Part shown: piece after piece, positions 2,330-3,117 of the stretch
Position numbering within the stretch: the stretch's first letter is position 1
Layout: each line of letters starts with the position of its first letter
DNA from: Escherichia coli
GTDB lineage: Bacteria > Pseudomonadota > Gammaproteobacteria > Enterobacterales > Enterobacteriaceae
Length of the DNA stretch: 64,000 nt
Assembly: GCF_003334355.1 (NCBI RefSeq)
Contig: NZ_QOWP01000007.1
Strand: one strand, 5' to 3'
Notes under the pieces: model-generated
The model's database searches: none
Seen by the model: only the letters and a program-made list of their open reading frames with translations
What the model was told of the DNA's origin: nothing
Translations under genes and position numbers: made by a program

Positions 2330-2573
2330 TGTTCAACCGCCCCGCCCGCTTCGTCTTACGATATTCATCATAAACTTTGGGATCATACTGAAGCTCCCCG
2401 CCAGATGCCTCCTGTAGACGCATCGCGCGACCTTCAGGAACCAGTATCCCCCAAGCAGCAACACTTGCCAGCCTCACTCCTGCGGCATTGGCAAGCTTTG
2501 TTTTGCTGCCAAAAAAAGTAATTGCGTCAACTTTAAGCATCAAAGCCCCCCTCTTGTTAGACTTTTCTAACAT
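2313..2573 (-). CDS. dicC: Cro-like small repressor (DicC / YdaS type)
   Basis: 86-aa ORF divergent from the dicA-like repressor across a 48-bp operator region; sequence MLKVDAITFFGSKTKLANAAGVRLASV typical of Cro-type HTH. Confidence 0.55.
   Translation of the reverse strand: MLEKSNKRGALMLKVDAITFFGSKTKLANAAGVRLASVAAWGILVPEGRAMRLQEASGGELQYDPKVYDEYRKTKRAGRLNNENHS
2554..2572. promoter_or_regulatory. Operator palindrome TTGTTAGA-N4-TCTAACA in the dicC/dicA divergent promoter region
   Basis: Perfect inverted repeat TGTTAGA / TCTAACA read directly from sequence. Confidence 0.6.
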
Positions 2574-2621
2574 TATTGTGCGCGGGATACCTAAGTCAAG
2601 AAAAATTAGAATTACCTAACT

Positions 2622-3029
2622 ATGGATACAAGAACCCTGGGCCAGCGAGTTCTGGCGCGACGAAAAGAATTACGCTTAACACAACGAGAAGCCGCGCGCC
2701 TCGCTGGAGTTGCTCACGTCACAATTTCACAATGGGAAAGAGACGAAACCCAGCCAGTCGGAAAACGATTGTTTGCTTTAGCGGATGCTCTGAAGTGCTC
2801 ACCTACATGGCTAATGTTTGGTGACGAAGACAAGGCACCAGTGCCTGCACAAGAACTTCATGTGGAAACAGAGCTAACTCCCAACCACAAAGAATTGATC
2901 GAATTATTCGATGCTCTTCCATCTTCCGAGCAGGAAGCCTTGCTGTCTGAAATGCGCGCAAGAGTAGAAAACTTCAACAAACTCTTCGAAGAAATGCTTA
3001 AAGCGCGTAAAAATAAATCAATAAAATAA
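2622..3029 (+). CDS. dicA: XRE-family HTH repressor DicA (cI-like immunity repressor)
   Basis: 135 aa; HTH LRLTQREAARLAGVAHVTISQWERDETQP plus C-terminal ...EMRARVENFNKLFEEMLKARK; immediately upstream of ydfABC-dicF-dicB. Confidence 0.75.
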   Translation: MDTRTLGQRVLARRKELRLTQREAARLAGVAHVTISQWERDETQPVGKRLFALADALKCSPTWLMFGDEDKAPVPAQELHVETELTPNHKELIELFDALPSSEQEALLSEMRARVENFNKLFEEMLKARKNKSIK

Positions 3030-3064
3030 CATTCTTTTCAAGTGATTAGTTGCGCCCACCCTTT

Positions 3065-3084
3065 TTGTTAGATCAATCTAACAA
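3065..3084. promoter_or_regulatory. Second copy of operator palindrome TTGTTAGA-N4-TCTAACA upstream of ydfA (dicB operon promoter region)
   Basis: Same inverted repeat as at 2554..2572. Confidence 0.55.
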
Positions 3085-3101
3085 AAAACACTTGCCTCTC
3101 A

Positions 3102-3117
3102 TGTTAGGTTATTCTAA
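3102..3117. promoter_or_regulatory. Third, degenerate operator copy (TGTTAGG-N4-TCTAA)
   Basis: Partial match to the operator palindrome 18 bp downstream of the second copy. Confidence 0.4.

Follow-up and report, generated by a model that had tools for sequence, protein, structure and literature searches.

The question raised by the dicC-dicA locus of this Escherichia coli genome is which protein acts at a short palindrome that recurs around the repressor gene, and whether its copies build a genetic switch that holds a cell-division-inhibitor operon in check. The stretch of DNA that was analysed, called the window throughout, is 64 kb long, and its start is, to judge from gene content, a Qin-position lambdoid prophage remnant on the E. 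coli chromosome, because truncated rspB and rspA and the backbone gene ynfA border the prophage genes. The order of genes in the remnant is a DUF977 gene, a replication-like ORF, ydaT, dicC, dicA, ydfA, ydfB, ydfC, DicF, dicB, ydfD, an exonuclease gene, xis and int, beyond which lie the truncated rspB and rspA and then ynfA as part of the chromosomal backbone. The synteny is that of the DicA/DicC immunity module of Qin-like prophages, with ydaT/ydfX-dicC divergent from dicA and followed on the other side by ydfABC-dicF-dicB-ydfD. The genes on which the argument turns are these:

1808-2329, minus strand: ydaT (ORF and RefSeq annotation)
2313-2540, minus strand: dicC, Cro-like regulator of 75 aa (ORF; NCBIfam NF007282; RefSeq CDS WP_000921596.1)
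2622-3029, plus strand: dicA, repressor of 135 aa (WP_000381212.1; NCBIfam NF007257, Pfam HTH_3 and a match to the P22 C2 N-terminal domain)
3198-4675, plus strand: the regulated operon ydfA-ydfD (RefSeq annotation of an identical record, and Rfam)
3198-3353, plus strand: ydfA (RefSeq annotation)
3355-3483, plus strand: ydfB (RefSeq annotation)
3513-3731, plus strand: ydfC (RefSeq annotation)
4073-4124, plus strand: DicF sRNA (Rfam RF00039, 76.7 bits)
4299-4487, plus strand: dicB (RefSeq annotation)
4484-4675, plus strand: ydfD (RefSeq annotation)

The system has already been described in K-12, and the window holds a variant, uncharacterised allele of it. E. coli CFSAN064036 is 100% identical to the window over the searched 1.2-kb locus, and its annotated genes coincide with the coordinates of the window ORFs. 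Most of this 1.2-kb dicC-dicA locus is present in about 550 of 5,426 complete E. coli genomes, the majority of the rest matching the conserved flanks only; the dicA-dicC locus of the window is a common alternative immunity allele. Unlike K-12 Qin, the remnant keeps a full ydaT, the replication-like ORF (862-1827), the DUF977 gene, an uninterrupted 823-aa exonuclease gene, xis and int (399-2329 and 4769-8879), and it may still be capable of excision. The rspB and rspA genes beside int are truncated pseudogenes (9067-10264).

DicA scores 224.7 bits against NCBIfam NF007257 (cut-off 101) and DicC 165.8 bits against NF007282 (cut-off 130); together with the RefSeq annotation downstream and the Rfam match to DicF, these scores show that the genes had been correctly named in the first-pass annotation of this DNA. 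The DicA of the window is only 54% identical to K-12 DicA. Its architecture is a P22 C2-like HTH N-terminal domain followed by a short conserved C-terminal helical domain, and a Pfam search of the 135-aa protein returned HTH families only (HTH_3-type, residues 12-64), with no Peptidase_S24 match that would mark a LexA/S24-like self-cleavage domain. The N-terminal 70 residues find P22 C2 in the PDB (phmmer; 1adr at 1.3e-18, 2r1j at 3.6e-18), the two repressors are 45% identical over 80 aa (tblastn), and Gln21, Val33, Ser36 and Gln37, in P22 C2 numbering, are retained in DicA.

The first-pass annotation had described an operator-type palindrome in three copies bracketing dicA (2622-3029), with a single copy in the dicC-dicA spacer and two upstream of ydfA, one of them perfect and the other degenerate. 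Both the number and the arrangement agree with direct reading of the sequence, and the number also with a pattern search. Two of the ends that it gave for the sites have been moved: the second site ends at 3083 and not, one base too far, at 3084, and the third ends at 3119 and not at 3117, where its last two bases were lost. As delimited here, the sites are:

2555-2572, no strand: Oc (site 1), a perfect 18-bp palindrome, TGTTAGA-CTTT-TCTAACA, exact match, with a 20-bp frame at 2554-2573
3066-3083, no strand: OB1 (site 2), a perfect palindrome, TGTTAGA-TCAA-TCTAACA, exact match
3102-3119, no strand: OB2 (site 3), a degenerate palindrome, TGTTAGG-TTAT-TCTAAAT

With the preceding base, site 1 reads TTGTTAGA-CTTT-TCTAACA at 2554-2572 and site 2 reads TTGTTAGA-TCAA-TCTAACA at 3065-3083; the OB1 palindrome extends to 26 bp, with 12-bp arms about a 2-bp centre (3062-3087). 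The pattern TGTTAGA-N4-TCTAACA, with 14 specified bases, has two exact matches in the 64 kb against 0.00 expected from 100 dinucleotide-preserving shuffles. OB2 has three mismatches to this 14-base pattern and two to TGTTAG-N6-CTAACA, and since 1.7-1.9 such matches are expected per 64 kb it would by itself stand at chance level; it is credible because it lies 36 bp from OB1, overlaps the predicted -10 of the dicB operon and is conserved in position across relatives. Further copies in or near the dicA locus were not found, and the other matches in the window with three mismatches or fewer (at 333, 44606 and 45960) are at chance level. A third operator was sought upstream of OB1, where the best candidate (3044-3061) has mismatches at 5 of 12 positions, and nothing in the window corresponds to K-12 Om. 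By homology and comparison, the three palindromes are almost certainly DicA binding sites through which the repressor turns off its rival dicC and the cell-division-inhibitor operon.

What such binding would do depends on where the promoters lie, and three can be proposed:

2572-2599, minus strand: predicted dicC promoter, with -35 TTGACT (2599-2594), a 16-nt spacer and -10 AATAAT (2577-2572)
2607-2612, plus strand: candidate dicA promoter -10, TAGAAT, from direct reading, 9 nt before the dicA ATG
3092-3120, plus strand: predicted dicB-operon promoter, dicBp, with -35 TTGCCT (3092-3097), a 17-nt spacer and -10 TAAATT (3115-3120)

The dicC promoter matches the sigma-70 consensus at 10 of 12 positions in a consensus scan, and CTTGACTTAGG within it is conserved in all alleles. 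Its +1 would fall near 2565, which would set the 20-bp frame of Oc at about -8..+12; the position of Oc relative to the dicC promoter is that of K-12 Oc, and a DicA site has been annotated at -8..+12 of K-12 dicCp (bioRxiv 10.1101/2025.05.13.653802). Read mechanically, the dicC ORF reaches back to an ATG at 2573 (86 aa), inside Oc and the predicted -10; the credible start is the annotated one at 2540 (75 aa), which agrees with K-12 DicC. The dicBp promoter was read directly, in base-for-base alignment with TTGACC-17-TAATCT of K-12, and was not reported by the consensus promoter scan, the score of TTGCCT/TAAATT being below the threshold of the tool. The CTTGCC/CTTGAC at its -35 is invariant across relatives, the +1 would be A3128, and the conserved leader of the dicB operon begins at 3127-3128. 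OB1 lies upstream of the -35, at about -62..-45, and OB2 overlaps the spacer and the -10, at about -26..-9.

On the dicA side, most alleles have a TAnnAT hexamer where the candidate -10 stands, whatever their operator specificity, and dicA is without a Shine-Dalgarno sequence (2604-2624). The layout suggests a nearly leaderless dicA mRNA, with a predicted start at about 2619-2622, in which respect dicA would be like lambda cI transcribed from PRM. An Oa-like element at 2604-2621 was considered as an operator and rejected, as it has mismatches at 3 of 12 positions and is conserved whatever the immunity class; the dicA -10 and the start of the gene account for it better. By extension the 'Oa operator' of the older literature would really be sequence of the promoter and the start, in agreement with the reported lack of DicA binding to Oa (PMC3441716).

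Binding has been shown by experiment for the K-12 allele: its DicA binds Oc (TTGTTAGTCATAACTAACAA) in vivo, and binding is lost when one A in the right arm, in CTAACA, is changed to C (Yun 2012, PMC3441716). Neither Om nor Oa is bound by K-12 DicA (PMC3441716); the names Oc, Om and Oa were, in the account given by two later papers, first used by Béjar 1986 (PMC3441716; PMC10448788). When bound to Oc, K-12 DicA represses dicC, and the expression of dicA depends on it (PMC3441716). Deletion of dicA derepresses dicBp 22-fold (Ragunathan and Vanderpool 2023, PMC10448788), DicC is required for stable switching, bistability of the DicA/DicC pair has been shown, and induction proceeds via the antirepressor Rem, heat or urea, without RecA (PMC10448788). 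A DicA site at K-12 dicB is listed as 'low-evidence', its location unknown (Reg-Seq 2020, PMC7567609), and for this reason OB1 and OB2 are sequence-inferred even in K-12. The literature also states third operators in each of the K-12 regions.

The likeness of the window to the K-12 Qin DicA/DicC-dicBp system extends to the chromosomal position of the prophage, the order of genes and all three operator positions. The two share the TGTTAG/CTAACA arms, the 18/20-bp geometry and the overlap with dicCp (-8..+12) and with the -35 and -10 of dicBp; an Oc-type TTGTTAG-N6-CTAACAA lies over the dicC promoter of the window, and 13 of 14 arm bases of Oc (20-bp frame) are identical in K-12. OB1 and OB2 are 36 bp apart in the window and 35 bp in K-12, and Oc and OB1 are 511 bp apart in both, an equality that follows from conserved gene length. 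The differences are that K-12 DicA departs from that of the window in helix 2, in helix 3 and in the following loop, and that OB1, a perfect palindrome in the window, is degenerate in K-12.

The comparison was widened to K-12 and other E. coli alleles, phage records and 160 IMG/VR loci, with about 110 related loci compared, and the sites stand in the same places in K-12 and in over 100 further loci. Of these loci 46 belong to the window-type class, with 17 unique sequences for the dicC-dicA spacer and 31 for the spacer downstream of dicA. Footprints were measured as the mean number of non-majority counts per column and came out as follows, the unique sequences being mutually related and the counts not independent events:

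Oc: arms 0.08, centre 4.33, among 17 unique relatives
OB1: arms 0.42, centre 8.0, among 31 unique relatives
OB2: arms 1.42, centre 4.5, among window-type relatives
Other intergenic columns: 1.7 in the dicC-dicA spacer, 6.6 downstream of dicA

Across the related loci the TGTTAG/CTAACA arms hardly vary, and it is the 6 bp at the centre that drift. GTTAG in the left arm of OB2 and TCTAA in its right arm are invariant in relatives, and in one of these (L056) OB2 is nearly perfect (TGTTAGGTTAATCTAACA); the right arm may be conserved simply as the -10 hexamer. The motif first proposed for these sites, TGTTAGA-N4-TCTAACA, holds as a palindrome, and the A at its position 7 turns out to be class-specific: what is conserved is TTGTTAG-N6-CTAACAA, and alleles of the window class prefer a purine at position 7. 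Where the DicA HTH is different, the palindrome is different too, at each of the three homologous positions:

L004/L005 operators: TTGAG-TTTT-CTCAA, TTGAG-TTTT-CTCAT and ATGAG-AAAA-CTAAA
L006/L061 operators: CCTTAG-N6-CTAAGG, GCTTAGG-N4-TCTACAC and TCTTAGG-N4-TCTAAAT

Of 80 window-type half-sites 74 have a purine at position 7, and all 142 half-sites of the K-12 type have a pyrimidine there. The centre is constrained to YATR in the K-12 type and is free and A/T-rich in the window type, and the toggling between A and G and between C and T within each class argues, on these alignments, for selection. Window-type and CCTTAG-type DicA have helix 3 and the following loop in common and differ in helix 2, and their operators differ only at positions 1-2; between the window type and the K-12 type the DicA proteins diverge in helix 3 and the loop, and the operators at position 7 and in the centre. 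By this comparison particular DicA residues can be provisionally assigned to particular operator bases. Tentatively, the window allele could be a separate immunity specificity within the TGTTAG-core family, in which the AHVTISQWERDETQP helix 3/loop would demand a purine at position 7 and accept any A/T-rich centre, the K-12-type 'SHVSVSQWER(G/D)DSEP' would demand a pyrimidine and YATR, and helix 2, with QRE as against QAA, would set positions 1-2 (TG as against CC/YC). The pattern may point to a simple, modular code of recognition, by which Qin-like prophages could be heteroimmune to one another; if this is true, several co-resident dicB-type division-inhibitor operons could be independently controlled, or their cross-talk could be predicted. 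At least four operator/repressor specificity classes of the DicA/DicC switch are carried by E. coli populations.

Two of the loci that were compared (L160 and L161) have, directly after the dicA stop codon, inverted operator half-sites (AGCTAACA-ATA-TGTTAGCT) followed by a T-run. This element, which is absent from the window, looks like an intrinsic terminator made from operator-like sequence.

It is very probable that the palindromes of the window are operators of the DicA/DicC immunity switch, acting through promoter occlusion at dicCp and dicBp; they are probably shared with DicC. The first-pass annotation had proposed a bistable switch in which a cI-like DicA represses the dicB-operon promoter, and the overlap with promoters, the comparison of alleles and the experiments in K-12 all support this, the last of these by homology where the window allele is concerned. 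From the same material we infer for this allele the binding of DicA, the transcription starts, the dimer stoichiometry and the sharing of sites with DicC. A DicA dimer would bind through its P22 C2-like HTH, each monomer reading one TTGTTAG(R) arm, and the central bases of the operator would be read only indirectly. At Oc the bound dimer would cover the dicC promoter from -8 to +12 and block dicC, and it would also favour the weak, divergent and probably near-leaderless dicA promoter, as in the K-12 report. Two dimers, at OB1 and OB2, would sit on either side of the dicBp -35, with the -10 covered, and ydfABC-dicF-dicB-ydfD would remain silent. Loss or inactivation of DicA, for which the K-12 triggers are antirepressor, heat and urea, would allow dicC to be expressed, and DicC would in turn repress dicA and lock the 'on' state, which would render the switch bistable.

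One might suppose instead that the palindromes are primarily sites of the Cro-like DicC and that DicA has other sites or an indirect effect. In lambda, CI and Cro bind common operators, and the HTH of DicC, like that of DicA, differs between alleles with different palindromes (that of L004 is unlike those of the window and K-12). By the title of a 1986 paper by Béjar, dicC was reportedly isolated as the gene complementing dicA1, and complementation of this kind implies that DicC can repress dicB. This supposition is nevertheless very unlikely, as the window and L006 have a near-identical DicC HTH and yet operators that differ at positions 1-2, which track helix 2 of DicA; in K-12, moreover, DicA is required for in vivo repression through Oc, which is restored when DicA is supplied (PMC3441716), and deletion of dicC does not derepress dicBp (PMC10448788). 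Use of the operators by both DicA and DicC is likely, and their use by DicC only is not likely.

Silencing of the prophage at these sites by a host nucleoid or global factor (H-NS, Fis or IHF), and not by DicA, has a slender probability. To our knowledge the arm sequences match no known H-NS, Fis or IHF consensus, and the palindrome changes together with the repressor allele of the prophage, which a host factor would not require. The idea draws what plausibility it has from the A/T-richness of the dicA-dicB region and from the influence of H-NS/Cnu and Fis/Hfq on the expression of dicA and dicB in K-12 (PMC3441716; PMC10448788).

Hardly any probability attaches to the suggestion that the palindromes act as RNA hairpins, OB1 as the dicA terminator and Oc as a 5' hairpin of the dicC mRNA, and are not protein-binding DNA. 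OB1, 33 nt past the dicA stop codon, does fold as RNA at -9.6 kcal/mol (z = -6.2), and Oc at -7 to -9.5 kcal/mol, but the stems are A/U-rich, neither hairpin is followed by a U-tract on either strand, the terminator scan was negative there and OB2 is too degenerate for folding. The arms are conserved in sequence and not by compensatory change, and one half-site sequence is found three times, spread over two transcription units. Rfam gave no match for 2300-3400 at E <= 1. Chance recurrence of an A/T-rich palindrome, in favour of which one can cite the degenerate matches elsewhere in the window, which are at chance level, is refuted by two exact 14-base matches where 0.00 were expected and by the same positions in K-12 and more than 100 loci.

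The operators of the DicA/DicC switch can be set beside those of better-known repressors. P22 C2 (PDB 2r1j, 3jxb; PMC4267663) has a homologous HTH domain and an 18-bp two-fold symmetric operator with an A/T-rich variable centre, and its dimer makes contact at positions 2-7 and 12-17 and none with the four bases in between (PMC4267663). The sites in the window are likewise 18-bp dyads with conserved outer and non-conserved central positions, as is typical of P22 C2 and 434. The specificity of the half-site is different, TGTTAGR in the window as against ATTTAAG in P22, the latter being what we take, from the DNA in 2r1j, to be the P22 consensus. Unlike P22 C2, DicA is without a LexA-like C-terminal domain, and where P22 has three operators in each set the window has one strong operator at the equivalent of OR and two at the equivalent of OL.

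In lambda CI/Cro as in the DicA/DicC switch, divergent repressor and cro genes share an operator and promoter region, with a second set of operators on the leftward early promoter, and the window has the lambda-type arrangement of divergent repressor and cro genes with overlapping promoters together with a repressed leftward early promoter, all of these promoters being predicted; bistability has likewise been shown for the K-12 homologue. Lambda, however, has a tripartite operator and RecA-mediated cleavage, and the DicA switch is without both: the three adjacent operators of canonical OR and OL are not found in the window, which has one strong site between dicC and dicA and two at dicBp. Of the lambda-like architecture envisaged at first, the DicA repressor switch thus stands and the full likeness does not, given one strong operator in the dicC-dicA spacer and the lack of a LexA-like cleavage domain. 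The Gifsy-type repressors GfoR and GfhR of Salmonella, likened here by their description (discussed in PMC10448788), are similarly short, non-cleavable and inactivated by a protein antirepressor.

Downstream of dicBp, the leader of about 60 nt that starts at the predicted +1 (3128-3197) reads CATCAAGACACCGCACGGTGTTCTCAGCAAACAGTTCCGCTACCCCGGCGTTAAGGGG. It is nearly identical in four immunity classes, even where the first gene is not ydfA (L006, L023, L045 and L135). In diverged copies from the Cronobacter phage phiES15 (L009) and from L164 the first hairpin (CACCG/CGGTG to ATCAC/GTGAT) and the GCGTTAAG-loop hairpin appear, by eye, to be kept. The leader has no significant similarity to the HK022 PL-nun (putL) region (blastn-short) and no match in Rfam, and RNAalifold found one compensatory pair only. 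It could be a nut/put-like element for antitermination, or a processing element.

The general picture of how such switches work is unchanged by this analysis. K-12 Oc is a textbook-level operator and the dicBp operators are still sequence-inferred only, and it is for OB1 and OB2 as dicBp operators that the comparative data provide modest new independent support. DicB and DicF are toxic inhibitors of division that DicA silences, and from its exact operators one can tell what mutations in the promoters, or what titrating DNA, would set off filamentation. The specificity classes help in annotation and in the prediction of cross-immunity among prophages that reside together.
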